DNA from: Armatimonadota bacterium
Lineage (GTDB): Bacteria; Armatimonadota; DTGP01; JAKQQT01
Assembly: GCA_036504095.1 (NCBI GenBank)
Contig: DASXVS010000002.1
Coordinates: 118,184 to 182,183 of the forward strand
Length of the DNA: 64,000 bases
Direction of reading: 5' to 3'
Shown here: positions 19,727 through 45,756 of the stretch, one piece after another
Layout: every line of letters begins with the position of its first letter
Position numbering within the stretch: the stretch's first letter is position 1
Notes under the pieces: model-generated
What the model saw: the letters and a program-made list of their open reading frames with translations, nothing else
Told to the model about the DNA's origin: nothing
Databases searched by the model: none
Program-made: the position numbers and the translations under genes

Positions 19727-21040
19727 CTACACTTCCCGCAGATCCACCACCCGCTTCGCCTTGCCCTCGCTCCGCGGGATGGTGCGCGGCTCCACCAGCC
19801 GGACCCTCACCGAAATTCCAAGCACGTGCGTGATCTCGCTGTGGATACGTTTCTCAAGGTCTTCGATGGCCCGGATTTCGTCGTTGAACATCGCGTCCGA
19901 CACCTCCACGCGGACCTCGATCTGGTCCAGATGCCCGGCGGCGCGGTCCACAACGATCAGGTAGTGCGGCTCCAGGTAGCCCAGTTCCAGAAGCGCCGAT
20001 TCGATCTGCGACGGGAAGACGTTCACACCGCGCACGATGAGCATGTCATCGGTGCGGCCCATCAGGCGCTCCATGCGGGTCACCGTGCGCCCGCACGCGC
20101 ACTTGTCCGTGTAGAGGCGCGAGAGGTCGCGCGTACGGTAGCGCAGCGCAGGCGCCGCCTGCCGGGAGATCGTCGTAAACACGAGTTCTCCGGTTGCGCC
20201 CGGCGGCAGGACCTCCTCCGTCTCGGGATCGATGATCTCCGGGATGAAGTGGTCCTCGCAGACATGAAGCCCGCACTGATGCGGACACTCATAGGAAACG
20301 CCAGGGCCGATCACTTCAGTCAGGCCGTAGATATCCAGCGCAGTGATCCCGAGCTTCGCCTCGATATCGCGCTGCATGGCGTTGGACCACGGCTCCGCCC
20401 CGAAGAACCCCACGCGCAGTTTCAGGGAGTCAAGCGGGATGCCTTCGTCGCGGATGGTCTCCGCCATGTACGCCGCAAACGACGGCGTGCACGCGAGAGC
20501 GGTGGCCCCGAAATCCTGAAGAAGCGTGATCTGGCGCTTGGTGTTGCCGCCCGAAACGGGAACGACCGTGGCGCCGACCCGCTCGGCCCCGTAATGAAGG
20601 CCCAGACCGCCGGTGAAAAGGCCGTAACCGTAAGCCACCTGGATGATATCGCCCGGAAAGACACCGCCGGCCGAAAGCGTCCGCGCGATGCATTCCGCCC
20701 AGAGCGCGATGTCGTCGCGCGTGTAGCCGACGACGATCGGCTTACCGGTGGTTCCCGAGGAGGCGTGAACCCGGACCACGTCGCCCATCGGGGAGGCAAA
20801 CAGGCCGAACGGGTAGTTGTCCCGCAGGTCGGTCTTCACCGTGAAAGGGAGGACATGGAGGTCGTCGATTCCACGGATGTCGCCCGGGCAGATGCCCTTC
20901 GCGTCCATCGCCTTACGGTAGTGTGGCACGTTGTCGTAGCAGCGCCGCACCGTATCGCGAAGCCGTTGTGATTGCAGTTCGCGCATGGCATCGCGATCCA
21001 TGCATTCGATCTGTTTGTTCCAGATGATGGTGTTGGTCAT
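19727..21040 (-). CDS. paaK: Phenylacetate-CoA ligase
   Basis: 437 aa; adenylate-forming motifs SSGTTGKP and YGLTE; start placed by codon arithmetic at MTNTIIWNKQ; the 5' remainder of the 696-aa track ORF is read-through. Confidence 0.85.
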   Translation of the reverse strand: MTNTIIWNKQIECMDRDAMRELQSQRLRDTVRRCYDNVPHYRKAMDAKGICPGDIRGIDDLHVLPFTVKTDLRDNYPFGLFASPMGDVVRVHASSGTTGKPIVVGYTRDDIALWAECIARTLSAGGVFPGDIIQVAYGYGLFTGGLGLHYGAERVGATVVPVSGGNTKRQITLLQDFGATALACTPSFAAYMAETIRDEGIPLDSLKLRVGFFGAEPWSNAMQRDIEAKLGITALDIYGLTEVIGPGVSYECPHQCGLHVCEDHFIPEIIDPETEEVLPPGATGELVFTTISRQAAPALRYRTRDLSRLYTDKCACGRTVTRMERLMGRTDDMLIVRGVNVFPSQIESALLELGYLEPHYLIVVDRAAGHLDQIEVRVEVSDAMFNDEIRAIEDLEKRIHSEITHVLGISVRVRLVEPRTIPRSEGKAKRVVDLREV

Positions 21041-21120
21041 TTGGCCCTCATAGAGAATTGAGGGTTGAGAATTGAGATCTGAGGGTCCGGAGTCCGGTCT
21101 CATTTCTCCATTCTCATATC

Positions 21121-21783
21121 TCAAATCTGATGCTCCCACCCCGCGGCCAGGGCGCGTCGGTTCGACTCCAGGAACTTCGGCTTCACGGTGTCCGCCAGCG
21201 CCTGCTCCCATATTTCGCGCGGCAGGCCCAGTTCCCTGCCCAGACGTCCCAGAAGCACGACGTTCGCGGCTCGGGCGTTGCCGGCTTCGCACGCGAGGCG
21301 GTCGGCGTCCATGGCGAACACCTTCCCGCGCCGTGACACCGACTTCTCGACACCCTGCGGGTATTTCGCCGTGCCAAGGATCACCGGCATTGGCGAGATG
21401 ATCTGCGTGCTCATGATAACAGCCGCATCCGGCTTCAGCATGTGCGACCAGCGCAGCGCTTCCAGTTGCTCGAAAGCCAGTATGAAATCCGCTGTTCCCG
21501 GGTCGATCGTGGGTGCGAAAATGCGGTCGCCGATTCGCACCTGGGTCACCACGGCGCCGCCGCGCTGGGCCATGCCGTGAGTTTCGGAGAACTTCACGTC
21601 TTTGCCCGCAAGTAATGCCACGCGGGACAGAATTCGCGCCGCCAGTATCGTCCCCTGCCCGCCAACACCAACAATGAGTATTGAGGTCGGGTCCAGGGCT
21701 GAGGGCTGAGGGCTGAAGGCTGGGAGAGACGCAGGTATCGGCGCGGCGCCTGAATCTTGAATCCTGGATACTGGATCCTTCAT
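21121..21783 (-). CDS. iorB: Indolepyruvate ferredoxin oxidoreductase, beta subunit (with ~25-aa repeat-derived N-terminal extension)
   Basis: ILIVGVGGQGTILAARIL core; ATG overlaps the iorA stop in an ATGA arrangement, so the extension encoded by GGGCTGAGG words is probably translated. Confidence 0.8.
   Translation of the reverse strand: MKDPVSRIQDSGAAPIPASLPAFSPQPSALDPTSILIVGVGGQGTILAARILSRVALLAGKDVKFSETHGMAQRGGAVVTQVRIGDRIFAPTIDPGTADFILAFEQLEALRWSHMLKPDAAVIMSTQIISPMPVILGTAKYPQGVEKSVSRRGKVFAMDADRLACEAGNARAANVVLLGRLGRELGLPREIWEQALADTVKPKFLESNRRALAAGWEHQI
21695..21723. repeat. GGGCTGAGG word repeat inside the iorB 5' end
   Basis: GGGCTGAGGGCTGAGGGCTGAAGGCTGGG; encodes AFSPQPSALDP on the minus strand; the same words occur at 29281 and 60800..60951. 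Confidence 0.55.
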
Positions 21784-23516
21784 AGCTCCAGCGCTCCCGT
21801 CTGGCAAACGGTGACACACAGGCCGCACGAGGTGCACATCCCTTCGTTGATCACTGGCCTCTCATCATCGCTCCAGGAAATGGCCGGGCAGCCGGGATCC
21901 ATGCACATCTGGCAACTGGCGCACGCTTCGTCCACCACTTTGACGGCCCTGCCCTCGAGGGTCGTGAGAAGCACGCACGGCCGCCGCGCGATAATGACGG
22001 ACACCTCGGGCGCCTGCGTCTCTTCCTTGAGGGCTTGCTCAAGCCCCTCGATATCCAACGCGTCCAGCACGCGGATCCGGCGCACACCGAGGCCCTTGCA
22101 GATATCCTCGAGCACGGCCTGCGGCGCCGGACGCCCCTTGGCATCCTTTCCTGTTGCCGGGTGGTCCTGATGACCCGTCATCGCGGTGGTCGCGTTGTCC
22201 AGGATCAGAACCGTCCCGTGGCTACCGTTATAGACCATGTCCAACAGGCCGGTCATCCCGCTGTGAAGGAACGTTGAATCGCCGATCACTGCGACGGTCT
22301 TCTTCGCGTTCGCGGGATCCGCCTTTTCCATGCCCAGCGCGAGGCCGATGCTGGCCCCCATGTCCATGAACATGTCCAGCGCGTTGAGCGGCGGCAGCGC
22401 GGCGAGCGTGTAACAGCCGATATCGCCGGTTACGATCAGCCTCAATCGATTCAGCGTGAGAAACACGCCGCGGTGCGGACAGCCCGGGCACAACACCGGA
22501 GGGCGTCCCGCGGCCTCTTCCGGCGCGAACGGCGCGGGCGGCGGCGGCGGTTCAGCCATCGCTTTGGCGATCGCCGTCTTCACCATCGTTGTGGAAAGCT
22601 CCCCGATGCGCGGCAGGCCGAGTGGCACGATTTTTACGCCGGCCAGTCGAACATTTTCCGCGAGGAACGGCTCCAACTCCTCGACCACGACCACCTTCTC
22701 AACGCCCTCCGCGAACTCGCGGACCAGCTTCTCCGGTAGCGGGTAGGAGCACCCCAATTTCAGCACGCTGGCATCCGGGCGAGCCTCCTTCACGTATTGA
22801 TAGGAGATCCCGGAGGTGATGATGCCGAGTTTGCGATCGCCCCATTCGATCCGGTTGATCGGCGTTGTTTCGGACCAGGCGGCCATTCGGTCGAACCGCG
22901 CCAGCACATCCGGCTGCCGGAGTTTGGCGTGCCCCGGGATCATCACGTATTTACGGACGTCCTTCTTATAGGGCCGCAGTTCGCAGGGTGTGCGCTCGCC
23001 GATCTCGACGAGGCTCTTCGAGTGCGAAATGCGCATAGTGGTCCTGAGGATCACTACCGTGTCCAGCTGCTCGGACATTTCAAGCGCCGCGCGCACCAAA
23101 TCCTTGCATTCCTGGCTGTCGGATGGCTCTAGCACAGGAATTCGCGCGAAGCGGCCATAGAAACGGTTGTCCTGCTCGTTCTGGGACGAGTGGATCCCCG
23201 GGTCGTCCGCGCTGACGAGCACGATGCCGCCGTTAACGCCGGTGTAAGCGAGGGTGAGAAGCGGGTCGGCAGCCACGTTCACGCCGACGTGCTTCATAGC
23301 CGCCAGCGAACGGGCGCCGGCCATGGACCCGCCGATGGCGACCTCCAACGCAACCTTCTCGTTAGGCGACCATTGCGCGGCGATATCGTCGTACCGCGCG
23401 ATGTTCTCCAGAATTTCAGTGCTGGGCGTGCCGGGATACGCCGCCGCCACCCGGACCCCATATTCATAAGCGCCCCGCGCAACGGCCTCGTTGCCCGAGA
23501 GCAGTTCCTTGCTCAA
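21780..23516 (-). CDS. iorA: Indolepyruvate ferredoxin oxidoreductase, alpha subunit
   Basis: 578 aa; thiamine-diphosphate-type segments (GDIGCYTL, GDSTFLHSG) and C-terminal ferredoxin-type Cys clusters (CASCQMC, CTSCGLC). Confidence 0.85.
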   Translation of the reverse strand: MSKELLSGNEAVARGAYEYGVRVAAAYPGTPSTEILENIARYDDIAAQWSPNEKVALEVAIGGSMAGARSLAAMKHVGVNVAADPLLTLAYTGVNGGIVLVSADDPGIHSSQNEQDNRFYGRFARIPVLEPSDSQECKDLVRAALEMSEQLDTVVILRTTMRISHSKSLVEIGERTPCELRPYKKDVRKYVMIPGHAKLRQPDVLARFDRMAAWSETTPINRIEWGDRKLGIITSGISYQYVKEARPDASVLKLGCSYPLPEKLVREFAEGVEKVVVVEELEPFLAENVRLAGVKIVPLGLPRIGELSTTMVKTAIAKAMAEPPPPPAPFAPEEAAGRPPVLCPGCPHRGVFLTLNRLRLIVTGDIGCYTLAALPPLNALDMFMDMGASIGLALGMEKADPANAKKTVAVIGDSTFLHSGMTGLLDMVYNGSHGTVLILDNATTAMTGHQDHPATGKDAKGRPAPQAVLEDICKGLGVRRIRVLDALDIEGLEQALKEETQAPEVSVIIARRPCVLLTTLEGRAVKVVDEACASCQMCMDPGCPAISWSDDERPVINEGMCTSCGLCVTVCQTGALEL

Positions 23517-35164: not shown

Positions 35165-35270
35165 GTGCGCTTCGCGCTTGTTGTCGACGAGTTTCTTTGC
35201 TCCGCTCAGAATGACAAAGGCCAGGACCCTCCGCACCTTTCCCCGTGTTAGGCCTATATTGAGACGTAAG

Positions 35271-35300
35271 GCTCGGAACCCGGAACTCGAAACTCGAAAC
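35271..35300. repeat. Inverted partial copy of the 35005 heptamer array
   Basis: CGGAACCCGGAACTCGAAACTCGAAACCC is the reverse complement of the array start (17 nt identical). Confidence 0.6.
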
Positions 35301-35306
35301 CCAAAC

Positions 35307-36620
35307 ATGCCCAAACACGAATACAACGGCGCGCTCATAACCGCCATCGAACCCGGCAGCATCGCCGATGAAGCCGGCTTGGAACCGGGCGACCGCATCC
35401 TCAAGATCAACGGCGAGGAACTGCGGGACGTTCTGGACTACCAGATGCACGCCTATGACGAAGACGTGGACCTGGAGGTCGCGCGCGGCGACCAGGCCGA
35501 ACTCATCCAGATCGAGAAATACGCCGGCGAGGGACTCGGCCTGGAACTGGGCGATGTGGTGTTTGACGGCGTCAAGCAGTGCACCAACCGCTGCGTTTTC
35601 TGTTTCATCCATCAGAACCCGAAGGGCATGCGCGAGACCATCTGGGTGAAGGACGATGATTACCGCCTCTCCTTCCTGGAGGGCCATTTCGTCACGCTCA
35701 CGAATCTGTCCGATGTCGAATGGCGCCGCATCGTGGACGAGCGGATGTCGCCGATGCGGGTCAGCGTTCACGCCACGGACCCGGCCGTGCGGCAGAAGAT
35801 GATCCTCCACAAAAACGCCGGCAAGGTGATGGAGCAGATCCGGGAACTCGTTTCGGTCGGCATCACGGTCCACTGCCAGGTGGTCCTGTGCCCCGGCTGG
35901 AACGACGGCGAGGTGCTGCGCCGCACGGTCTATGATCTCGCCCCGTTGTACCCGGGCGTGGAATCGCTGGCCATCGTGCCCGTGGGCCTCACGAAATACC
36001 GCAAGAACCTGCCGGACCTCGTTCCCGTAACCCCGGAGATAGCGCGCGACGTCATCAAGACGGTTGGCGGCTACCAGCGCGATCTCAAGCGCACCATCGG
36101 CAGCCGCTTCGTTTATCTGGGCGATGAGTTCTACCTCCAGGCCGGGATTGCGCTTCCGAAATACACGGAGTACGAAGGCTATCCGGCTCTGGATGACGGC
36201 GTGGGAACGTGCCGCTGGTGGGACCATCGTTGGCGCAACGCCCGCAAGAACCTGCCGGAAGGCATCGCCAAGCCGCGCCGCGTAACGGTTGTGACCGGCG
36301 AAATGGCCGGGCCGTTCCTCCAGAAATCGGTGGACCGCCTGAACGAGATCGCGAACGTGGATGCAACTCTAATCCCGGTGAAAAACGAGTTCTACGGAGG
36401 CGGCATCAATGTGGCCGGCCTCGTCACCGGATCGGACATCGTCACCGCCCTTGCCGGGACGGATGTGGGACAGGAGACGATCGTGCCGGAGATCATGGTC
36501 CGCCAGGGCCGCTTCCTCGACGACGTGACGCTGGAGGACATTCAAAGGGCCACCGGCCGCCCGGTCCGCGTGGTAAGCACGGATCCCGCCGGCCTCATCG
36601 ATGGGGTGTTAGGACTGTGA
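35307..36620 (+). CDS. PDZ-domain radical-SAM-like protein with DUF512-type C-terminal region
   Basis: PDZ-like GSIADEAGLEPGDRILKING; CTNRCVFC (C-x3-C-x2-C) radical-SAM cluster motif; 437 aa. Confidence 0.65.
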   Translation: MPKHEYNGALITAIEPGSIADEAGLEPGDRILKINGEELRDVLDYQMHAYDEDVDLEVARGDQAELIQIEKYAGEGLGLELGDVVFDGVKQCTNRCVFCFIHQNPKGMRETIWVKDDDYRLSFLEGHFVTLTNLSDVEWRRIVDERMSPMRVSVHATDPAVRQKMILHKNAGKVMEQIRELVSVGITVHCQVVLCPGWNDGEVLRRTVYDLAPLYPGVESLAIVPVGLTKYRKNLPDLVPVTPEIARDVIKTVGGYQRDLKRTIGSRFVYLGDEFYLQAGIALPKYTEYEGYPALDDGVGTCRWWDHRWRNARKNLPEGIAKPRRVTVVTGEMAGPFLQKSVDRLNEIANVDATLIPVKNEFYGGGINVAGLVTGSDIVTALAGTDVGQETIVPEIMVRQGRFLDDVTLEDIQRATGRPVRVVSTDPAGLIDGVLGL

Positions 36621-37058
36621 CGCGGCCACAAAGGGATCGATGAAGCGCACTCCCTCGACGGTGCGGTCGTTTTGGAAGTCTTCGCTGTAAAGCACCGTGG
36701 CGCCAGCTTCTCTGGCTGCTGCCCAGATGAGCGCATCCCAGAAGGAGAAGCCATAATTGGGCATCGCATCCAGGGCAAGAAAAGTCAGCGATGCTGTCAG
36801 CGGGACTACGGTGGCAGCGCTCGCAAGAAGGTAGACCATTTCGCTCGCCACCGTGTGGCTAAGTGCCGGCGGCTTCATCGGACGCGTAGCGACCGAGTAG
36901 AACTCATTCAGAACCTGCACGCTCACCACAAGGGAACCGCTATCGCGGAGCAGTTCCAATAACGCGAGGGCCGCGTCGTGTTTGGCCCCGGCGTCCGGAT
37001 CAGCCGAGTAGACCAGGACATTGGTGTCAACGAAGCTCGCGTTTGCGGTCGGCCACAC
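36609..37058 (-). CDS. vapC: PIN-domain toxin (VapC-like)
   Basis: FVDTNVLVY with the conserved Asp at the N-terminus and later acidic residues; overlaps the upstream small gene. Confidence 0.75.
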   Translation of the reverse strand: MWPTANASFVDTNVLVYSADPDAGAKHDAALALLELLRDSGSLVVSVQVLNEFYSVATRPMKPPALSHTVASEMVYLLASAATVVPLTASLTFLALDAMPNYGFSFWDALIWAAAREAGATVLYSEDFQNDRTVEGVRFIDPFVAASQS

Positions 37059-37290
37059 GATCGTGAATCTCCTCGCGAGTGGGGTATGGCGGCCCCCCGA
37101 GGGGAACCCCCTGCCTGAAACGGCCTATCAACCGCTCTAGCGCTTCTCGACGCTCGGCTGGGCCCACTTCGGCCGACTGCGCGAACGTCACCAGGACACG
37201 GGCATCGTCCCGGGCGAAACTTGGCTTCTCGTCCAACTCGACCTTGCCGTCTCGGTATGTGCCTTCCACTGTCAGCAGTCCCATGGGCAA
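37027..37290 (-). CDS. Putative antitoxin (VapB-like)
   Basis: 87-aa ORF overlapping the vapC start by 32 nt; assignment by position and size. Confidence 0.5.
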   Translation of the reverse strand: MPMGLLTVEGTYRDGKVELDEKPSFARDDARVLVTFAQSAEVGPAERREALERLIGRFRQGVPLGGPPYPTREEIHDRVADRKRELR

Positions 37291-37641
37291 ACCTCTTGAT
37301 TCACATGATACGCTGACGGGTGTTCAATGTACAACAGCAAGAACTCGTTGAAGCCGCACCAAACCTCCTCTGGTTGATGGTAGGTGCGCTTGCGCCTGCG
37401 ATCCTTCTCGTTTCACTGCGGGATCTGTTTGACGGCGAAATGAGAGTGGGGAAACGGGGGAATGGACTCATTCCCTCATTTCCCCACTTTCCCCGTTTCC
37501 CTTGCCCGTCCCACGGGAAAGGCCGCGAGCGTATCTTATGGTCAAGGGTAGCGCGGGCTAATGGTGCGTATCAAACGATCAATCGGCCTGATTTGTCTAC
37601 GCCGTACCACTGACGCCCCATTCCCCATCCCCTCCTCCGTG

Positions 37642-37671
37642 TTGACGCTCACAGACACCGGGGCGTACAAT
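37642..37671 (+). promoter_or_regulatory. Candidate sigma70-type promoter TTGACG-N18-TACAAT
   Basis: TTGACG then an 18-nt spacer then TACAAT, about 65 nt before the 37737 start. Confidence 0.35.
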
Positions 37672-37736
37672 ATAGCGTGTGGGGCGCCCCGGCGGGCGCC
37701 CCCATTTTACATACGTCCGCTCGGAGGAGCCCCCTG

Positions 37737-39089
37737 ATGGAAAACGTCCTGTTGTCGGATCCAGGCTACGGCGAAGCTCGGCTCGCCAACGCCCGCGCAA
37801 AAGGCCAATATGAAGCCCTCGCGCAAGCCCTGCAAAAGGGCGCGGATTCCGTGCTGGACGCTGTCGGCGAATCGGGCCTCCGGGGACGCGGAGTCGGCTG
37901 GCCCGTCCACGACAAGTGGCTCACATACCGCAAATCGCCCACGGAAACGAAATACCTCATTTGCAACGCCCACGAAGGCGAGCCCGGCAGTTTCAAGGAT
38001 CGGGCGCTGCTGGAGCGCTTCCCGCACAAAGTGTTGGAGGGCATTCTCCTCGCAGCCTTCGCCGGCGGCGCCACGAAGGGCATCTACTACACCGATGAGA
38101 ACCACGATGACGCCCTCTCCGCGATCAACAAGGCTATGGACGAAGCCCGTGAGGCCAACCTCCTGGGCGCGAACATCCTCGGATCCGGTTGGGACTTCGA
38201 AATCGAGGTCGCCGTCTTCAACAGCTCGCAGTTCCCGAACTACGTGAACGTCAGCGGCGAAGAGACCGCCATCTGCGAGTTTCTGGAAGGCCGGCGTCCG
38301 CTCCCGCGGCAGAAGCCCCCTTACGCCGTCGAGGCCGGCCTCCGCGGCAAGCCAACACTCGTCCACAACGTTGAAACGTTCGCCCAACTCCCCGCCATCA
38401 TCCGCAACGGCGCCCGTTGGTTCAGGTCGATGGGCACAGCGGCCACCCCGGGCACGCTGCTGATGAGCCTGATGGGCCCCGTCAACAACCCGGACGTCTA
38501 CGAGGTTGAGGCCGGCACCAGCCTCCGCTACCTCATCGATACGCTGGGCGGCGGGTTGATCGAGAACCGGGCGCTCAAGGCCGTCGCGCCGGGCGGACCG
38601 GCGTCCGAGTTCATCCTCGGCAGCGCCGCCGATGTCGCCATCGACTACGCCCCGCTCGAGGCGGTTGGCACGCGCCTCGGCGTCGGCGCGGTGTGGGTCA
38701 TCCCGGCCGGCACGTGCATGGTCGAGGAATGTCTCAAAATGTCGCGCTGGTACGAGCGCATGTCCTGCCGCCAGTGCACCGGCTGCGGCATGGGAAGCAG
38801 CGTCATCTTCAGCAACCTCGGCGATATCCGGCGCGGCGTGGTCGGCGTGGAGTACCTCGACTACCTGGCCAGCGTCTGCGAATGGATGCCGGGAAACGGC
38901 ATCTGCGAATTCGTCGACCGCGTGCCGCGCCACATATTGAGCGCCATGAACCTCTTCCCCGAGGATTTCCTGCAGCACCTCAAAGAAGGCCGCTGCGCGG
39001 ACGGCTCATTCAGCCTCGTCAACAAGAAGTTCTTCGACCCAACGGCGGTCCTGCAAACCGGCGATGAGGACATGCCGATCAGGCCTTAG
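37737..39089 (+). CDS. NuoF-like (complex I 51-kDa subunit family) protein with degenerate FMN-binding loop
   Basis: NADH-site-like ICNAHEGEPGSFKDR and Fe-S motif SCRQCTGCG are present, but the canonical GRGGAGFPTG loop reads GRGVGWPVHD; no nuoE or other complex I genes adjacent. Confidence 0.7.
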   Translation: MENVLLSDPGYGEARLANARAKGQYEALAQALQKGADSVLDAVGESGLRGRGVGWPVHDKWLTYRKSPTETKYLICNAHEGEPGSFKDRALLERFPHKVLEGILLAAFAGGATKGIYYTDENHDDALSAINKAMDEAREANLLGANILGSGWDFEIEVAVFNSSQFPNYVNVSGEETAICEFLEGRRPLPRQKPPYAVEAGLRGKPTLVHNVETFAQLPAIIRNGARWFRSMGTAATPGTLLMSLMGPVNNPDVYEVEAGTSLRYLIDTLGGGLIENRALKAVAPGGPASEFILGSAADVAIDYAPLEAVGTRLGVGAVWVIPAGTCMVEECLKMSRWYERMSCRQCTGCGMGSSVIFSNLGDIRRGVVGVEYLDYLASVCEWMPGNGICEFVDRVPRHILSAMNLFPEDFLQHLKEGRCADGSFSLVNKKFFDPTAVLQTGDEDMPIRP

Positions 39090-39180: not shown

Positions 39181-39924
39181 ATGACTTCATACGAAACAAC
39201 CGACGATCTGAAGAATCTGCCGATCCACGACAACGGCGAGCCGCTTGTGGATTTTCGCACCTGCGGCGCGGTGTTCGCGCCGCGCCACAGCGTGTTCCCG
39301 TTCCCGCGGCTGCCGCTTCTGCGTTGGGGCGTCGTGGCCAGGCTCGTCGAGGTGGTGAAAGCGCTTCCCGTCGGCTGGACGCTGCACATCAACGAGGGCT
39401 TCCGGCCCATCGAGGTCCAGCGCCTTCAGTTTGAGGCGGGCCGGCGTCGCTTCGAATCGATGTTCCCGGACATGGATCCCGCTGAACGCGCCGCACTGCT
39501 CGAGGATTTCACCGCGCCGCCCGACGTCCCCGAGGTCCCGCCGCCGCACAGCACCGGCGGCGCATTGGACATCCGGCTGCTGGATGCTAACGGCGAGGAG
39601 GTAGACCTTGTCTCGCCGTTCGCGCGGGACGATACCTTGCACGTCGCCGCGTGGGATGCGCCCGTTTCACCTGAAGCGCGCGCGAACCGCGAGATACTGG
39701 GGGCCGCAATGGCAGCCGGCGGCATCACGAACTACCCCGCAGAGTACTGGCACTGGAGTTATGGCGACCAGGGCTGGGCCCACCGCGGCGGCCACCCCGC
39801 CGCGATCTACGGACGCCTGGACTACACGATTGCCGGCCTTGAGGCGATGACCGGCATACTCGCAAACCGCGAGAATCCCCTGCACGACTGGCCCGTGGAC
39901 CTCCCAAAGGAAATCATCACATAG
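39181..39924 (+). CDS. D-Ala-D-Ala dipeptidase (VanX-like, M15 family)
   Basis: HSTGGALDI zinc-ligand motif and EYWHWSYG motif. Confidence 0.7.
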   Translation: MTSYETTDDLKNLPIHDNGEPLVDFRTCGAVFAPRHSVFPFPRLPLLRWGVVARLVEVVKALPVGWTLHINEGFRPIEVQRLQFEAGRRRFESMFPDMDPAERAALLEDFTAPPDVPEVPPPHSTGGALDIRLLDANGEEVDLVSPFARDDTLHVAAWDAPVSPEARANREILGAAMAAGGITNYPAEYWHWSYGDQGWAHRGGHPAAIYGRLDYTIAGLEAMTGILANRENPLHDWPVDLPKEIIT

Positions 39925-39989: not shown

Positions 39990-41216
39990 TCAGTCTTCTT
40001 CCCAGCTCTTCGGGCTGAAGCCGGTGACCACACCCTTAACGTTCTGAAGCGCTTCGTCGTAATGCAGAACGGTGCCGTTGCCGTTGAAAGATACGGTCTT
40101 CCCGGCCAGGGAACCGTACACGTTCCCGGAGGTGCCGGCGCCGTTCAGCACGATGTCGGCTTCAGGGGCGTACACGGCCGCGGAAAGCGCCCCGTTGCCG
40201 GAGATGCTCACGCTGGTGCAGGTCGGCGTGCCGTAGAGGATGAGATCGCACGGCCGCGCCAGCCTGCCGGTCATATCGTTGTTGTTCACGATGCCGTTGC
40301 CGCCAATGAACATGCTGCCTGTAACGTAAAGGTACACGCGACCGCTGGTGGTGACGATGCTGTTACCGGTCAGGCTGATCGAATCGCAATAGTACGTGCC
40401 CGCAGGGATGGCCAGCGAGCCGGTGATGGCATTCCTGCCGCCATTGATCCTCGAAATCGGGATGGCGTCGCCCGGAATGGCCACATCGGGCATAGTGGCG
40501 GTTGCCGGGGCCGACAGTACGCTGCCGGATATGCGGCTGCGATCCAGCGTCACGCTGTTCAGATTCGTGCTTGGACCGTAGATCACGTTTCCGCCGCAGT
40601 GGCCGTTGTTCAAGATGGTGATGGCGCTGGGGTTCGTGGAATCCGTCCGAATGTCTCCCTTGGTGCCCACGTTGGTGCCGCCGTACGTACCGCCGCCCGT
40701 GGCGGGATCGGAGTTGTACGAGTCCGTTTCGCCGTTGGCCAGCGGAACGCCGTTACGGCCGAACGCCGCCGCGCTGAATGGTGTACCCCAACGCTTGTAT
40801 GCTATCACCCGCACCTGCTTGGCCAACTTGCCCCGCCCGTTGGCGGCAGGGGAGTATCCATGCGCCGTCACCTGCAGGTAGTCACCCCCCAGTTCGATGA
40901 TCGGATCCACCGTATAGGTTCCGATGGTGGTGGTCGCCCCGCCAACCGTTTCGACCAGCGGCTTATCGGTGAAATCCACCGGGCTGCCGGTGCAGCGCCA
41001 CACAGGGTTCGTGTTCATCTGGTTCAGCGCGCGTTCGATACCGGCCTCCGCCAGATTCCGAACGATGAGCGTCTGGCCGCCCGCGCGCGTGGATTTCTGC
41101 TCCGATGTAGCCATCGTTGTCATCGCCACCCCCAGCGCGAGCACGATGACCATGAACGCCAGCGCCGCTATCATGGCGAACCCACGGCGCTTTCGATTGT
41201 GATTGATATCAGTCAT
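39990..41216 (-). CDS. PilX-like minor pilin / pilus assembly protein
   Basis: N-terminal RRGFAMIAALAFMVIVLALGVAM hydrophobic segment, then a Gly/Thr/Asn-rich beta-rich region; last gene of the pilin cluster. Confidence 0.45.
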   Translation of the reverse strand: MTDINHNRKRRGFAMIAALAFMVIVLALGVAMTTMATSEQKSTRAGGQTLIVRNLAEAGIERALNQMNTNPVWRCTGSPVDFTDKPLVETVGGATTTIGTYTVDPIIELGGDYLQVTAHGYSPAANGRGKLAKQVRVIAYKRWGTPFSAAAFGRNGVPLANGETDSYNSDPATGGGTYGGTNVGTKGDIRTDSTNPSAITILNNGHCGGNVIYGPSTNLNSVTLDRSRISGSVLSAPATATMPDVAIPGDAIPISRINGGRNAITGSLAIPAGTYYCDSISLTGNSIVTTSGRVYLYVTGSMFIGGNGIVNNNDMTGRLARPCDLILYGTPTCTSVSISGNGALSAAVYAPEADIVLNGAGTSGNVYGSLAGKTVSFNGNGTVLHYDEALQNVKGVVTGFSPKSWEED

Positions 41217-41244
41217 TTTGTGTATCCTCTCGCGATGGGCAAAG

Positions 41245-42204
41245 TCAGACCTGTGGTGGGACGTTTACCGTCACGGAAGACGCCGCCGCCTCCCGACCCA
41301 CAACAACGTTGGTGACCGTGGCCGCCGCGCCGTCGGTGGGTGATGCCGTGACGGAGTACGTCCCTTCCATCAGGCCATAAAGTTCAAAGGTCCCGATCGC
41401 GTCCGAAGTGGTGGAAATTACGATGGTGCCGACAGGGTAGGCGCCGGTGGTGCTGGTATACGTAGCCTTCACAACGGCATTTGGCACGCCCACGCCGTTG
41501 CGCATCACGCACCCGGGGATGCTTCCGCTGCGCATGTTCCGAAGCCGCACCCCGGTCACCGAGACGGGGCACTCGCCGCTGGCCCTGCCGGTACCCAGAA
41601 TCTGCGTCTGGAAGTCGATGGAAGCGACCCTCGGGCCGGCGGTGGCGGCGACCGGCGTTCCGTCGCGATTTTTCAGTACAAGCGTGAACTGCTGGACATT
41701 GCGGGCTATTACCGCGGATCTCTCCGCCGAACGGTAGCTGGTTCGCGGCGAGTGCGCATCGTTGGTTACCACATTGACGGCCGGAACCACGGTTCGCCGC
41801 AGCGTCTGGTCCGCGGGATTGATGTAGTAGATAACAGTGTCCGTCACGATCGCCTGGGGCGTCGCCGTTCCGACCCCGTAGTACAGCAGACCGTAGGCGT
41901 CCTGCGAGGGAACCTGCAGAATCAAGCAGGCAGCCGGGCTCGGCCCGGAGGATGCCGTATAGGACACGCCGTCCACGATTGTGGAACTGAGAAATGCGGT
42001 TGCGCCGCGCGCGTCGGTGGCCATGCGGTCCAGCACCGTGCGCGTGCGAAGCTGCGCGTAGGTACGCGCCTGCTCGTTATGAAAGCCTCTGGTGCCTCCG
42101 ACGTAAAGCCCGACGGCGGTGGCCATCAGACCGCCGGAAATAGCGGTCGCCACCACCGTTTCCATCAATGATACACCGTAACGGCCTATTCTGAATCGTT
42201 TCAT
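41245..42204 (-). CDS. Pilin-like protein (prepilin-type leader) with C-terminal Ig-like/carboxypeptidase-regulatory-like domain
   Basis: GVSLMETVVATAISGGLMA resembles a G/xxxxE prepilin cleavage motif; start overlaps the upstream stop. Confidence 0.45.
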   Translation of the reverse strand: MKRFRIGRYGVSLMETVVATAISGGLMATAVGLYVGGTRGFHNEQARTYAQLRTRTVLDRMATDARGATAFLSSTIVDGVSYTASSGPSPAACLILQVPSQDAYGLLYYGVGTATPQAIVTDTVIYYINPADQTLRRTVVPAVNVVTNDAHSPRTSYRSAERSAVIARNVQQFTLVLKNRDGTPVAATAGPRVASIDFQTQILGTGRASGECPVSVTGVRLRNMRSGSIPGCVMRNGVGVPNAVVKATYTSTTGAYPVGTIVISTTSDAIGTFELYGLMEGTYSVTASPTDGAAATVTNVVVGREAAASSVTVNVPPQV

Positions 42205-42776
42205 CGTGCCCCGATTCCTCCCTGGGCGATGATGGTGCCCATAACCGCGTATCGCGGCTGCTTGTTGGGATCCGTCCAGCGCACGATGACGGTCACATGC
42301 TTGGCCGGGTACGTCGCGGTTGTGCCATTCGGGCCCAAGGTGGTGCTGGTGCCGTTCGAGTCGTTGGTGATGATTACACCGCCGCTGCCGCCGCTGAGAT
42401 TGGCGAGGTTGGGGATCTGCCCCGGATAGCCGGCGTCACCCGGTCTTGAGGCATCGGAAGTCCCATCCGCCTTCAGAAAGCGGGCTTCCTGCGTCCCGGC
42501 CGGGGTCGGCGCCTTTATGATGGTCTGCAACGTCGCGAAGGGGATGTTGCGCACCAGTTCGATCTCGAGCTGCGCTGCCTGGTAGGCCTGGGCCATGTTC
42601 CTGGCATCGGAGTTGCCAACCGTGCTGATGGCCACCAGGTAAAATGCCGATACGATTCCCACTACGGTAAGGACGATCGCGCACAGAACCTCCACAAGCG
42701 TGAAGCCCCGGCGTTTCCCTCGGTGAATTGCAGCATGGCCGCTTCGGCGCGGCGCGCCTGAATCCGGTTTTCTCAA
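42201..42776 (-). CDS. Prepilin-type pseudopilin / minor pilin
   Basis: RRGFTLVEVLCAIVLTVVGIV; proposed TTG start is in frame (codon 63 of the track ORF) and preceded by AAGGAGG with a 5-nt spacer. Confidence 0.65.
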   Translation of the reverse strand: MRKPDSGAPRRSGHAAIHRGKRRGFTLVEVLCAIVLTVVGIVSAFYLVAISTVGNSDARNMAQAYQAAQLEIELVRNIPFATLQTIIKAPTPAGTQEARFLKADGTSDASRPGDAGYPGQIPNLANLSGGSGGVIITNDSNGTSTTLGPNGTTATYPAKHVTVIVRWTDPNKQPRYAVMGTIIAQGGIGAR

Positions 42777-42841
42777 GGCAGCCTCCTTTACAGGCTCTAT
42801 AGTCGCGGGCGATCCCTGGTGAGCGCCACGGGGAACGCAGA

Positions 42842-43312
42842 TCACTGCAGGACCGGATCCGTTGCGGTGGCGGGGGCCCCGTTGTTCACAACGGATCGAA
42901 TTGCGCCGCTCGCGTCGATGAAGAACGAACGCCGGCCGGTTGTCCCGAATTGAATGGGGCACGCGGTGATGGCGTAGTTGCTGGCGTCGCCGCCGCCCGC
43001 GAAAGCGTATCCGGACTTCTGCCCTGACGCGAGAATCGGGTCCAGTTCCGGTGGCACGAGCGCCCCCAGGTCCTGGATATGGGAGGGATAGGCGTAGTTC
43101 CCGCCCACGTTCCGCAGCTGATAGGTCTCCATCGCCTTCGAGATGACGCGCATCGAACCGATCGCGCTACTCTCGTTGGCGGCCATCCGGGACTCCAGCA
43201 TGTTCGGTATGGCAAGCCCTGCCAGGATAAGGATGACCGTGATCACGATCAACAGCTCCACGAGTGTGAAGCCTCTCGGCCGGCGGCGGTACGCGTTTGC
43301 TATCAAAGACAT
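42842..43312 (-). CDS. Type IV pilin-like protein (156 aa), paralog of the pilin at 45898..46368
   Basis: RGFTLVELLIVITVILILAGLAIPN class III signal; AGGAG ribosome-binding site 7 nt before the ATG; shares the AANESSAI motif with the paralog. Confidence 0.75.
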   Translation of the reverse strand: MSLIANAYRRRPRGFTLVELLIVITVILILAGLAIPNMLESRMAANESSAIGSMRVISKAMETYQLRNVGGNYAYPSHIQDLGALVPPELDPILASGQKSGYAFAGGGDASNYAITACPIQFGTTGRRSFFIDASGAIRSVVNNGAPATATDPVLQ

Positions 43313-43367
43313 GTACAAACTCCTGTGTAGGCGAACAACCACCCCATACGAAGAGGGCGGTCCCATG

Positions 43368-43378
43368 CCTTTATACCA
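43368..43378 (-). promoter_or_regulatory. Candidate extended -10 element TGgTATAAA upstream of the pilin gene
   Basis: Minus-strand TCGTGGTATAAAG about 55 nt upstream of the pilin ATG. Confidence 0.3.
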
Positions 43379-43638
43379 CGACGCCGGGGCCATCCGGCAG
43401 GGGGGAGCAGTACCAACTCATGTCCGCCCTAGTATGAAGGAGCCTGGTCGTTTACACTGAGGAGGCGGGAGGCTCAGGCAAAGCTGGCGGAGGTTCGAGG
43501 CATCCTGGCCGAAACGGAGCGGGGAACGAGCCCAGTGGAGACGAAAGACGCCTCCTCCTTCAACTTCGCCAGTCCGGGCCGGAATCGGCGCCGTGTCGCT
43601 CCCGCTCCCACACACCCCCTCCCGTATCGCCCCGGTCC

Positions 43639-45756
43639 CTACCGCGTCAGGCCTTTTCCCCTCCACGGCGCGAGTTCGGGGTGGTCCGGATAGGAATCCG
43701 CCGCCCAACCGAGCAAACGATCGCTCAGATCCGGCCGGTTTTCGTCCCGGAAAATGCCGGCAAGGCGCACATACGCCGACGGGTCCAACGGCTCCGACTC
43801 GATGGCGGCGCGTAACGTGTACTTTTCGCCGTAAGCGTTTCCGCTGGCCCGGTAGGCGCGCGAAAGGGCCATCCAGGTTGTGGACGATACCGGCGCTTCC
43901 CGCACGGCCTGGCGTGCCTGCGTAACGGCCTCACGCGTGTTCAGATAGCAAAGCGCTTGCGCCAGCCCCGCGCGCCATATGCCGTTGCGCGGCTCGGCGG
44001 CGAGGTTTGCCGAGTACGCCTCGGCAGCGTCCTCCGCCGGTCCCATCACCTCCATGCCGCTTTTCGCTGCGGCGGCTTCCAGCGCTGTCTCACCCAGCGC
44101 GCGACGATAGCCAACTTCCGACGGGTCGATCAAGGATGCCGCGCGGTAATACGGCACGGCTGCCCCCGGCCGGCCTTGCGCTCTTAAGTGCGCGCCAAAA
44201 CCGCTCGCAGTGTCCGCTCCAAGGGTTGAGAGAGCTGCCACGATGGCCGCGGCGCCCCAGCCATATCCGGCGATTCGGGTTGCGTGGGCGGGTACGGTCC
44301 AACGCCTGCGGACAACAGGCTCCAGCGCCGCCGTCAGCCCCCAGCACAGCGCCAGGCACAGCGTGGTGGTTGGCGCGCGAGGAGTGAAGCTTCCCTGGAT
44401 AACAAACGCGGCGATCGCGCCGAAAACCGCGGCGGCCGTGTCTGCGCGGCGCATTGCAGTTGGACTCCCGCCCGGTGTCGGAACCGGCCGCCCCTTCCTG
44501 GCCAACAGGCCGGCTTCTTCCCGCGCCCGGTCCGAGGCCAGGCCCGCGATCAACACCACGAGGAGCGCCCAGGCCACAAGTCCGAGTGCGCCGCCTTCAA
44601 CGGCCGCGGAATACCACTCGCTTTGCGCGTTCTGGTGCGGCAGCAGGAGGGCGTCAGGCATATTTACAGAATCGTGGGCGATCGTCGACGCCGCGATCCG
44701 ATAGCCATCCGGGCCGTAACCCAGGAACGGCCGCTGGCCGAAGAGGCCGCTGGCGACGCCCCACAACGTCTTGCGAGCCGACGCCGCCTGAGTTTCGGCG
44801 GTGGCCCGCCTCTCCGTACGCGCCGCCGAGCCGGGTAGATGCGTGTCCGCGAACACGGCTAGTGCGGCAACGGCCAGGCCGACCGCAAGCGCACGTCGGG
44901 CGGCGCTGAATCCCGGCAGCGATGCGAGCCACCATATGAGGAAGGCGCCCAGCGGCGCCGAAAGCGCGAATGCCGCGGAATGGGAACGCGTCCAGACGAT
45001 TGGGAGCGCCATCATGATGATCATCGCTATCCCGCCGAGGCTGGGATTCAACGGCCTGGAAGAACCCCGGCCCGCGGCGTAAATCGTCACGATCAGTCCC
45101 GCCGCTGCCGCTACCCACGCGGCGCGCGCATAGGTCAACACCAGCGCGACGACGATCGCCGCGATGGCCGGTGTCAGCCAGCGAGGACTCCTCCGCATCC
45201 GGGAAATCGCCAGCGCAAACGGCAGCGCCAGCGCGAGGAACGCCCCCAGGTAAACGGGTGAACCCACCGTGCCTGCCGCCGCATATGCCCGATTCGCCGC
45301 GCCCCCTTGGAGAAGATCGAGGGCGTAGTGCTGCGCAATGGCGTAGGCCGAGGAGATGCCGGCCGATGCGACCAACGCGAGCATCAACCGCCGACGCGCC
45401 CCCGCCTTCCTCGCCACCTCCGCGAAGGCCAGCGCCAGCACAGCCCCCGGCAGCAGGTTCAGCGCCGCCCACGCACTGCTGACCCGCGATACCGCCGCCA
45501 TCACCGTAACGAGCGTTGCGAGCATCCAGAACACCCCTGGCCAGAGGAGTCGCGATGGCAGCGCCGCCTTGCGCAATCTGCTGAAGAGGAATCCGGCGCC
45601 GCCGGCGGCCGCCCACATCGCGGCGATTTTGATCCTCCCACAAAGCGATTGCCCCAACGGGTTCATCAGCAGCGGAGTGAGAAACAGAACCAGGACGGCC
45701 AGCCTCTCAAGGGCGCGCCGTGCCTGTTGTGCCGCCAACCGTTCTCTGTTGTCCAT
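43639..45756 (-). CDS. O-antigen ligase (Wzy_C) family polytopic membrane protein with C-terminal TPR-like region
   Basis: Many Ala/Leu-rich TM helices; LTYARAAWVAAAAGL resembles the conserved ligase block; C-terminal soluble region with TPR-like helices; lies between two pilin paralogs. Confidence 0.65.
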   Translation of the reverse strand: MDNRERLAAQQARRALERLAVLVLFLTPLLMNPLGQSLCGRIKIAAMWAAAGGAGFLFSRLRKAALPSRLLWPGVFWMLATLVTVMAAVSRVSSAWAALNLLPGAVLALAFAEVARKAGARRRLMLALVASAGISSAYAIAQHYALDLLQGGAANRAYAAAGTVGSPVYLGAFLALALPFALAISRMRRSPRWLTPAIAAIVVALVLTYARAAWVAAAAGLIVTIYAAGRGSSRPLNPSLGGIAMIIMMALPIVWTRSHSAAFALSAPLGAFLIWWLASLPGFSAARRALAVGLAVAALAVFADTHLPGSAARTERRATAETQAASARKTLWGVASGLFGQRPFLGYGPDGYRIAASTIAHDSVNMPDALLLPHQNAQSEWYSAAVEGGALGLVAWALLVVLIAGLASDRAREEAGLLARKGRPVPTPGGSPTAMRRADTAAAVFGAIAAFVIQGSFTPRAPTTTLCLALCWGLTAALEPVVRRRWTVPAHATRIAGYGWGAAAIVAALSTLGADTASGFGAHLRAQGRPGAAVPYYRAASLIDPSEVGYRRALGETALEAAAAKSGMEVMGPAEDAAEAYSANLAAEPRNGIWRAGLAQALCYLNTREAVTQARQAVREAPVSSTTWMALSRAYRASGNAYGEKYTLRAAIESEPLDPSAYVRLAGIFRDENRPDLSDRLLGWAADSYPDHPELAPWRGKGLTR

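Follow-up and report, generated by a model that had tools for sequence, protein, structure and literature searches.

Does a NuoF homologue that carries a degenerate flavin mononucleotide (FMN)-binding loop and stands apart from any partner subunit still work as an FMN-dependent dehydrogenase of reduced nicotinamide adenine dinucleotide (NADH)? The question is raised by a gene in a 64,000-nucleotide stretch of DNA, hereafter the window, from an Armatimonadota bacterium (assembly GCA_036504095.1, contig DASXVS010000002.1, positions 118,184 to 182,183). The coding sequence (37737-39089, + strand; ATG at 37737, stop codon included) specifies a stand-alone NuoF-like protein of 450 amino acids (aa; NCBI HEY3411586.1), which an earlier sequence-only reading had taken to be possibly a non-flavin paralog, with another cofactor or a role in regulation. 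It may be a cytoplasmic iron-sulfur protein derived from the NuoF (51-kDa) family, in which the whole fold and the N3-type site would be retained, remodelling would have reached the glycine loop, the flavin-cluster link and the strand beneath the flavin, and canonical FMN-dependent NADH dehydrogenase work would have been given up. Such a protein could use its [4Fe-4S] cluster to carry single electrons or to respond to redox state, with a conserved disordered C-terminal tail docking it to a partner encoded elsewhere. This reading of a non-canonical carrier or redox-responsive module, tail-docked to an unlinked partner, is held tentatively and at somewhat less than an even chance, its cofactor, direction of electron flow, tail role and partner all being inferred.

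Fold and iron-sulfur site of the NuoF-like protein

Pfam domains Complex1_51K (1e-31), NADH_4Fe-4S (2e-13) and, weakly, SLBB are matched by the protein. The NuoF equivalog model TIGR01959 of NCBIfam aligns end to end, with a score of 349 bits that lies below its cut-off of 558.65, and two further NuoF-type models are likewise matched below their cut-offs (NF010120, 274.9 versus 389; NF008436, 259 versus 749). All sequence matches in the PDB are NuoF-type subunits, the best being HydB of T. maritima (6e-86). The AlphaFold2 model, built on a 72-sequence alignment, has a mean predicted local distance difference test (pLDDT) score of 90.2, with residues 426-450 below 50, and is superposed by Foldseek on NfnB, HydB and complex I NuoF with template modelling (TM) scores of 0.85-0.90 and a root-mean-square deviation (rmsd) of about 1.5 Å. 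The N-terminal, Rossmann-like, ubiquitin-like/SLBB and four-helix bundle domains of the family are recovered in this layout by AlphaFold2, Foldseek and Pfam taken together. As the confident model superposes on NfnB, HydB and NuoF, the predicted NuoF fold is considered secure.

The four ligands of the N3 [4Fe-4S] cluster, C344, C347, C350 and C390 (the last encoded at 38904-38906, +), are all present. They are invariant in the clade of 13 orthologue clusters to which the protein belongs and in an outgroup of 143 diverse NuoF modules, which were gathered by exhaustive search and aligned with the clade using MAFFT. The first three cysteines lie in residues 340-353 (ERMSCRQCTGCGMG; 38754-38795, +), where the E, G and R of the family are replaced by M342, R345 and G351, respectively.

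With the NuoF/Nqo1/NDUFV1 subunits (TIGR01959) the protein shares the four-domain fold over its full length (TM about 0.86-0.88, rmsd about 1.6 Å), the N3 cysteines and the GEET, NVET, E-x-E-PG-x-F-KDR and KPP motifs. It differs from them by deletion of a loop Gly and by F55W, N210H, E342M, G345R and R351G, carries six extra residues in the loop that contacts NuoE and 30 more in a C-terminal tail, and has no nuoE, nuoG or other nuo genes nearby among the open reading frames (ORFs) scanned. The best PDB matches are the Bfu-family subunits HydB (HydABC) and NfnB (NfnABC) (7p5h_B, 9n5u_B and 9bov_B; TM 0.87-0.90). These are, however, about 580-630 aa long and extend well beyond the NuoF-like stretch aligned. 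They have an N-terminal 2Fe-2S domain and C-terminal 2x[4Fe-4S] domains and occur with HydA/HydC-type partners, whereas Pfam finds neither a Fer4 nor a 2Fe-2S_thioredx domain in the 450-aa protein, and no hydrogenase or Nfn partner adjoins its gene. RnfC, PduS and PrdC have Complex1_51K and SLBB domains in common with it, and PduS likewise stands alone as an electron-transfer protein and is similar in size, but these proteins carry ferredoxin-type 4Fe-4S domains instead of the NADH_4Fe-4S four-helix bundle. The RnfC, PrdC and RsxC models reach only 22-26 bits, against cut-offs of 245-490, and cover residues 28-139 only.

Remodelling of the flavin and NADH pocket

The glycine-rich FMN/NADH loop is found at residues 46-61 (SGLRGRG-VGWPVHDKW; 37872-37919, +), where one Gly is deleted and A, F, T and G are replaced by V, W, V and H, respectively. 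The motifs quoted in the sequence-only reading, GRGVGWPVHD (residues 50-59), ICNAHEGEPGSFKDR (residues 75-89) and C-x2-C-x2-C (C344/C347/C350), are all present, and its description of the loop as degenerate withstands a check for a loop that is shifted but intact. The deleted column is occupied in every one of the 143 modules, by G in 139, S in three and D in one, and HMMER alignments to HydB and NfnB also place a gap inside the loop of this protein.

Changes at family-conserved positions are found throughout the pocket. Around the loop, A (76% of the 143 modules) or G (15%) is replaced in the clade by I or V at position 53, F (91%) by W in nine and R in four of the 13 clusters at position 55, and G (71%) by H at position 58. 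The segment ICNAHEGEPGSFKDR (37959-38003, +) keeps the acidic residues E80, E82 and D88, with the canonical D of the NADE motif (72%) replaced by H79. In the strand under the flavin, the GAG of positions 161-163 has become (F/W)(P/N)(S/G), and residues 170-178 (VNVSGEETA, canonically AYICGEETA; 38244-38270, +) keep GEET with Y changed to N and C (73%) to S at position 173. Further replacements are N (85%) to H at position 210, E (94%) to M at 342, G (96%) to R at 345, R (87%) to G at 351, L (85%) to F at 392 and G (83%) to V at 393. When equivalences to human NDUFV1 are assigned by motif anchors, M342, G351, S173 and N171 correspond to E377, R386, C206 and Y204, and these four changes at family-conserved flavin-site residues (E377 to M, R386 to G, C206 to S and Y204 to N) go beyond those listed in the sequence-only reading. 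In a Yarrowia model, E377K and C206G yield an assembled complex I without flavin, Y204C yields no complex I, and R386C/H destabilise the flavin site (PMC4614703).

The residues that hold NADH in Aquifex NuoF, K76, E95, E97, D103, E185 and K202 (PMC9299107; PMC11677225), correspond to K60, E80, E82, D88, E176 and K193, which show little or no variation across the clade. Since these NADH-site residues persist, the flavin/NADH cavity appears to have been remodelled rather than erased.

The nucleotide pocket also seems not to be held constant within a clade whose members average 83% identity, as both the loop and the adenine-stacking residues vary among them. The loop takes the form GRG-[IVA]G[WR] in ten of the 13 clusters and a full-length form, GRGGSARP or GRGGYPRP, in the remaining three (P0007, P0010 and P0011). 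The first adenine-stacking aromatic (Aquifex F71) is W in the protein of the window and R in four of the 13 clade members, while the second (Aquifex Y205) is Y in the former and T, L or M in the three members with a full-length loop, in which both aromatics are thus missing. Variability was compared at positions conserved in at least 70% of the 143 modules, between flavin-proximal segments, taken as the equivalents of human residues within 10 Å of the flavin (PMC4614703 supplement), and all other segments. Variable positions within the clade make up 15 of 31 in the former and 17 of 78 in the latter (Fisher p about 0.01, a rough value given that the sequences are related and not independent), which suggests a loosened constraint on the old active site, although the evidence for this is modest and flavin loss is not proven by such a comparison. 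Eight of nine changes in the flavin segments enlarge the side chain. A three-His metal site in the former flavin pocket (H58, H79 and H210) was considered and rejected, as none of these residues is invariant: H58 gives way to A, S or Q in three members, H79 to S or D in two and H210 to Q in one.

Several observations weigh against the loss of flavin and favour the alternative that the protein is still a flavoprotein, a soluble NAD(P)H:acceptor oxidoreductase whose re-shaped pocket would hold FMN or a different flavin, whose electrons would leave via the [4Fe-4S] cluster as in its NuoEF-type relatives and whose loop variants would reflect nucleotide specificity. Besides the six NADH-site residues, R51, G174, E175, N211 and E213 vary little or not at all among the clade members, a degree of conservation that appears hard to explain for an empty cavity, and the motifs GRG, GEET and NVET close to the flavin persist. 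The change of F to W and the Y/F at position 196 are conservative in nine to ten of the 13 members, H79 and H210 could still form hydrogen bonds, and the subclade with R55 includes one member with E176Q, which could fit a switch to NADPH. The excess variability of flavin-proximal positions weakens at other thresholds and loses significance at the strictest, and changes in the clade consensus are not significantly concentrated near the flavin (nine of 31 versus 16 of 78, Fisher p=0.45). A retained flavin would, on the other hand, have to be reconciled with a one-residue loop deletion seen in none of the 143 modules, a beta-branched I or V in place of A or G within 5 Å of the flavin, replacements at the E377 and R386 equivalents, where mutation removes or destabilises the flavin of complex I (PMC4614703), the greater variability of the flavin-proximal positions and the loss of the adenine sandwich in three members. 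The flavoprotein alternative is accordingly judged a serious contender, if a somewhat improbable one. The suggestion of a non-flavin paralog made in the sequence-only reading is thus plausible in view of the unique loop deletion and the variable pocket, and is tempered by the (near-)invariant cavity residues and by consensus changes that show no significant concentration near the flavin; for its second part, a specific alternative cofactor or regulatory role, no evidence was found in these analyses.

A clade-specific insert and C-terminal tail

Directly before the strand under the flavin (canonically GAGAYICGEET), the clade carries a 6-residue insert, SQFPNY in the window (residues 164-169; 38226-38243, +) and S-K/Q-Y/F-P-N-Y across the clade, at a position where all 143 outgroup modules have a gap. 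The loop that holds the insert position contacts the 24-kDa/NuoE subunit in complex I (PMC4614703), so that the insert would, by alignment, sit in the NuoE-contact loop. The C-terminal tail, residues 420-450 (CADGxxSLVN[KR]KF[FY]DPxxxxxGDxDMPxRP; 38994-39086, +), is also specific to the clade and has no counterpart in the 143 modules; 17 of its 31 positions are invariant in the clade, and it is predicted to be disordered from the pLDDT values below 50 at residues 426-450. In a more specific form of the proposal, the protein would be the first natural member of the NuoF family without FMN, a NuoE-independent, stand-alone [4Fe-4S] redox sensor or electron-transfer adaptor whose cavity is partly filled by larger side chains and the insert and whose tail tethers it to an unlinked partner. 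This form is regarded as an appreciable possibility that falls short of being probable.

Distribution and selection

A word-indexed search returned 13 clusters at 68-100% identity to the protein, beyond which identity falls to 44-46%. When a profile of these 13 clusters was searched against 1.84 billion representatives at 50% identity, exactly one member was recovered, at 920 bits, with the next match at 362 bits. One clade member is present in the GTDB species set, an Armatimonadota metagenome-assembled genome, and a metagenome scan added two more loci; neither source revealed a partner. The clade is restricted to the Armatimonadota and tiny, comprising 13 sequence clusters that are all from uncultured organisms. 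The protein shares 31-41% identity with the 143 representatives. Between pairs of these, identity has a median of 41%, and to the nearest neighbour a median of 53%; by this measure the protein appears to be among the most isolated members of the NuoF superfamily.

Ratios of nonsynonymous to synonymous substitution rates (dN/dS) between pairs of six orthologues range from 0.08 to 0.26, at a dS of about 1. These low values indicate that the NuoF-like gene is under purifying selection, and hence a real and maintained functional gene rather than a pseudogene. Public annotations of the clade are generic, namely 'NADH-ubiquinone oxidoreductase-F iron-sulfur binding region domain-containing protein', 'NuoF' and 'iron-hydrogenase subunit beta', and no account of stand-alone or FMN-less NuoF homologues was found in the literature searched. 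The protein represents a new, narrowly distributed and divergent subfamily within a thoroughly familiar fold and does not amount to a new type of system.

Gene start and transcription

All 13 orthologue clusters open with M-[EDQ]-x-x-LL, equivalent to the ATG at 37737. A Shine-Dalgarno sequence, GGAGGAG (37723-37729, +), can be read 7 nucleotides 5' of this codon, and directly upstream of the gene lies a sigma-70-type promoter-like site, TTGACG-N18-TACAAT (37642-37671, +), with ten of 12 matches to the consensus. The orthologue N-termini, the Shine-Dalgarno sequence and the promoter-like site together identify the ATG at 37737 as the start; a longer, GTG-initiated ORF from 37677 was considered as the gene and ruled out on the orthologue starts and the placement of the same two signals. 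Genomic surroundings were compared across nine orthologue loci, in each of which about 20 kb or less is visible around the gene rather than a whole genome. In five of these (L001, L003, L004, L005 and L006), an element of the type TTGACGC-N17-TACAAT, including CACAAT and TAGAAT variants, recurs directly upstream of the orthologue, which argues for a conserved predicted promoter of its own and for independent transcription of the NuoF-like gene.

The 5' leader contains a perfect 9-bp GC hairpin, GGGGCGCCC-CGGC-GGGCGCCCC (37681-37702, +). A strong GC hairpin occurs at the same place in the L003 leader, with an unrelated sequence, and Rfam gave no credible match to a riboswitch in the leader. An ORF of 423 aa runs antisense to nearly the whole NuoF-like gene (37707-38978, -) and is taken to be an accident of the G+C content of 62-65%.

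Nearest relatives and the absence of linked partners

The nearest relatives outside the clade, at 40-45% identity, are uncharacterised proteins of 410-425 aa from Chloroflexota, Acidobacteriota and other taxa, with an NGGEDEPGS motif variant. They belong to soluble NuoE+NuoF pairs, which resemble the protein in their similar length, in having no extra domains and in lying outside a nuo operon. They differ in that the GRGGAGFP loop is intact, ESCGQC still has its E and CR(M/E) its R, and neither the insert nor the tail is present. Four of the five relatives' loci studied lie outside nuo operons. In three of the five, the nuoF-like gene directly follows a small 2Fe-2S_thioredx (NuoE-like) gene, and two of these three lie in PaaX/PaaA_PaaC/enoyl-CoA hydratase/CoA-transferase clusters. 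In a fourth locus, a similar PaaX/hydratase/CoA-transferase cluster, a CCG/Fer4 protein gene comes next, and in the fifth the nuoF-like gene is stand-alone. The gene sets in question span 172-1851 in L013, 6672-8233 in L015, 6663-8260 in L016 and 7001-10352 in L014, and the CCG/Fer4 protein that follows one of them has 690 aa. By analogy to PaaE, these NuoE+NuoF pairs may be NADH-dependent reductase components for aromatic coenzyme A (CoA)-ester oxygenases, a role for which we know of no description.

The NuoE-like gene that stands immediately upstream in most relatives is present in none of the nine target-clade loci. The clade most likely descends from soluble NuoEF-type reductase modules, to judge from nearest relatives that are mostly NuoE+NuoF pairs outside nuo operons, with nuoE lost from the neighbourhood. 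Within the window, Pfam was searched with about 55 large ORFs spread over its whole length; none matched NuoE, complex I, hydrogenase or formate dehydrogenase families, and about 20 matched no family. Nor does a nuoE, complex I, hydrogenase, formate dehydrogenase or other redox partner gene adjoin the orthologues in the nine loci (roughly 10 kb or less), and the stand-alone character of the gene asserted by the sequence-only reading is borne out over this range.

The protein could nonetheless belong to a redox complex of several proteins, the others being encoded at unlinked sites; among these might be an HdrD-like protein, a di-iron oxygenase or a 2Fe-2S protein resembling NuoE. Such an arrangement would fit either cofactor scenario. 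The position of the nearest relatives directly after a NuoE-like gene, in PaaX/PaaA_PaaC-type clusters or adjoining a CCG/Fer4 protein gene, is in keeping with such a complex, as is the resemblance of the conserved disordered tail to a docking peptide. However, no such gene occurs at the nine loci or in the scanned window ORFs, the gene has its own promoter-like element, and the 6-aa insert occupies the loop that normally contacts NuoE. An unlinked complex of this kind is therefore considered rather unlikely.

Neighbouring genes

The gene downstream (39181-39924, +) was described in the sequence-only reading as encoding a VanX-like dipeptidase. This holds at the level of the Peptidase_M15 family (9e-17) and of the VanX-type motifs HxxGxAxD and ExWH, but does not extend to the VanX/DdpX equivalogs, the cut-offs of which lie far above the score of this protein. 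Directly downstream and in the same orientation, an M15 gene is found in the window, L003, L004 and L005, whereas none adjoins the more distant orthologues in L001, L006, L007 and L018; other downstream neighbours encode an aldose epimerase, a zinc-ribbon protein and, twice, MatE. Upstream, the orthologues are preceded by a family 4 glycosyltransferase (GT4) gene (L001, L003, L005 and, inverted, L006) or by genes for PEP-CTERM proteins. No GT4 gene was found in the window, which shares only the NuoF-like and M15 genes with the orthologue loci.

Synteny was accordingly rejected as a functional clue, the GT4 and M15 adjacencies being partial and fitting the relatedness of the genomes. Joint work of the NuoF-like protein with the M15 dipeptidase or the upstream GT4 in cell-envelope metabolism would draw on the recurrence of these two neighbours, yet M15 is missing beside four orthologues, GT4 is absent from the window and lies on the opposite strand in L006, and the pattern fits shared ancestry of close genomes. 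We know of no biochemical link between M15 or GT4 enzymes and the NuoF fold, and this explanation is very improbable. The notion that a duplicated nuoF has left a pseudogene or decaying relic here, which the strong divergence from every other NuoF and the degenerate catalytic loop might evoke, is effectively refuted by the purifying selection, an intact frame in all 13 clusters, and the conservation of the new insert and tail, the promoter-like site and the Shine-Dalgarno sequence.

Other features of the window

Upstream of the NuoF-like gene lies a gene with PDZ, radical-SAM-like and DUF512 domains (35178-36620, +), which matches the TIGR03279 family at 437 bits, below the equivalog cut-off of 574.7. 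TIGR03279 is an uncharacterised Fe-S enzyme family, and adjacency of its member to the NuoF-like gene is not conserved in the other loci. PDZ domains bind C-terminal peptides, and a possible tie to the tail of the NuoF-like protein may be wondered about. Between these two genes lies a PIN toxin gene, overlapped by a small ORF upstream of it that takes the antitoxin position and, at 87 aa, has no match in Pfam (together 36609-37290, -). This pair may be an insertion, since orthologue loci have GT4 at this place. An inverted repeat, GGGGAAACGGGG...CCCCGTTTCCC (37442-37491), lies between the antitoxin-position ORF and the NuoF-like promoter; Rfam returned only chance microRNA-hairpin matches to it, and a terminator or a repeat element would be possible readings.

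Downstream of the M15 gene, a four-gene run (39990-43393, -) encodes two proteins with prepilin-type N-methylation motifs, a protein with a DUF7305/ice-binding-like adhesin domain and one with a CarboxypepD_reg domain, and is followed by a gene for a Wzy_C O-antigen-ligase-like protein (43639-45756). The arrangement resembles a surface locus of the pseudopilus or type IV pilus kind. At 19727-23516 (-), a phenylacetate-CoA-ligase-like gene (AMP-binding_C_2) adjoins one for an indolepyruvate/2-oxoacid:ferredoxin oxidoreductase-like enzyme (POR_N, TPP_enzyme_C and Fer4). The latter gene, 15 kb upstream of the NuoF-like gene, was the only other Fe-S redox enzyme gene to emerge from an Fe-S motif screen of all window ORFs.

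Significance for the NuoF family

The importance of the clade is limited by its tiny size and uninformative genomic context. The FMN/NADH site of NuoF is nevertheless among the most conserved redox sites, and human complex I disease results from single substitutions in it. The present clade, a natural lineage, combines a deletion in the glycine loop with replacements at the equivalents of the disease-linked residues E377, R386, C206 and Y204, and is yet under purifying selection. The clade may thus represent a natural experiment on the NuoF fold without canonical flavin chemistry and without NuoE.

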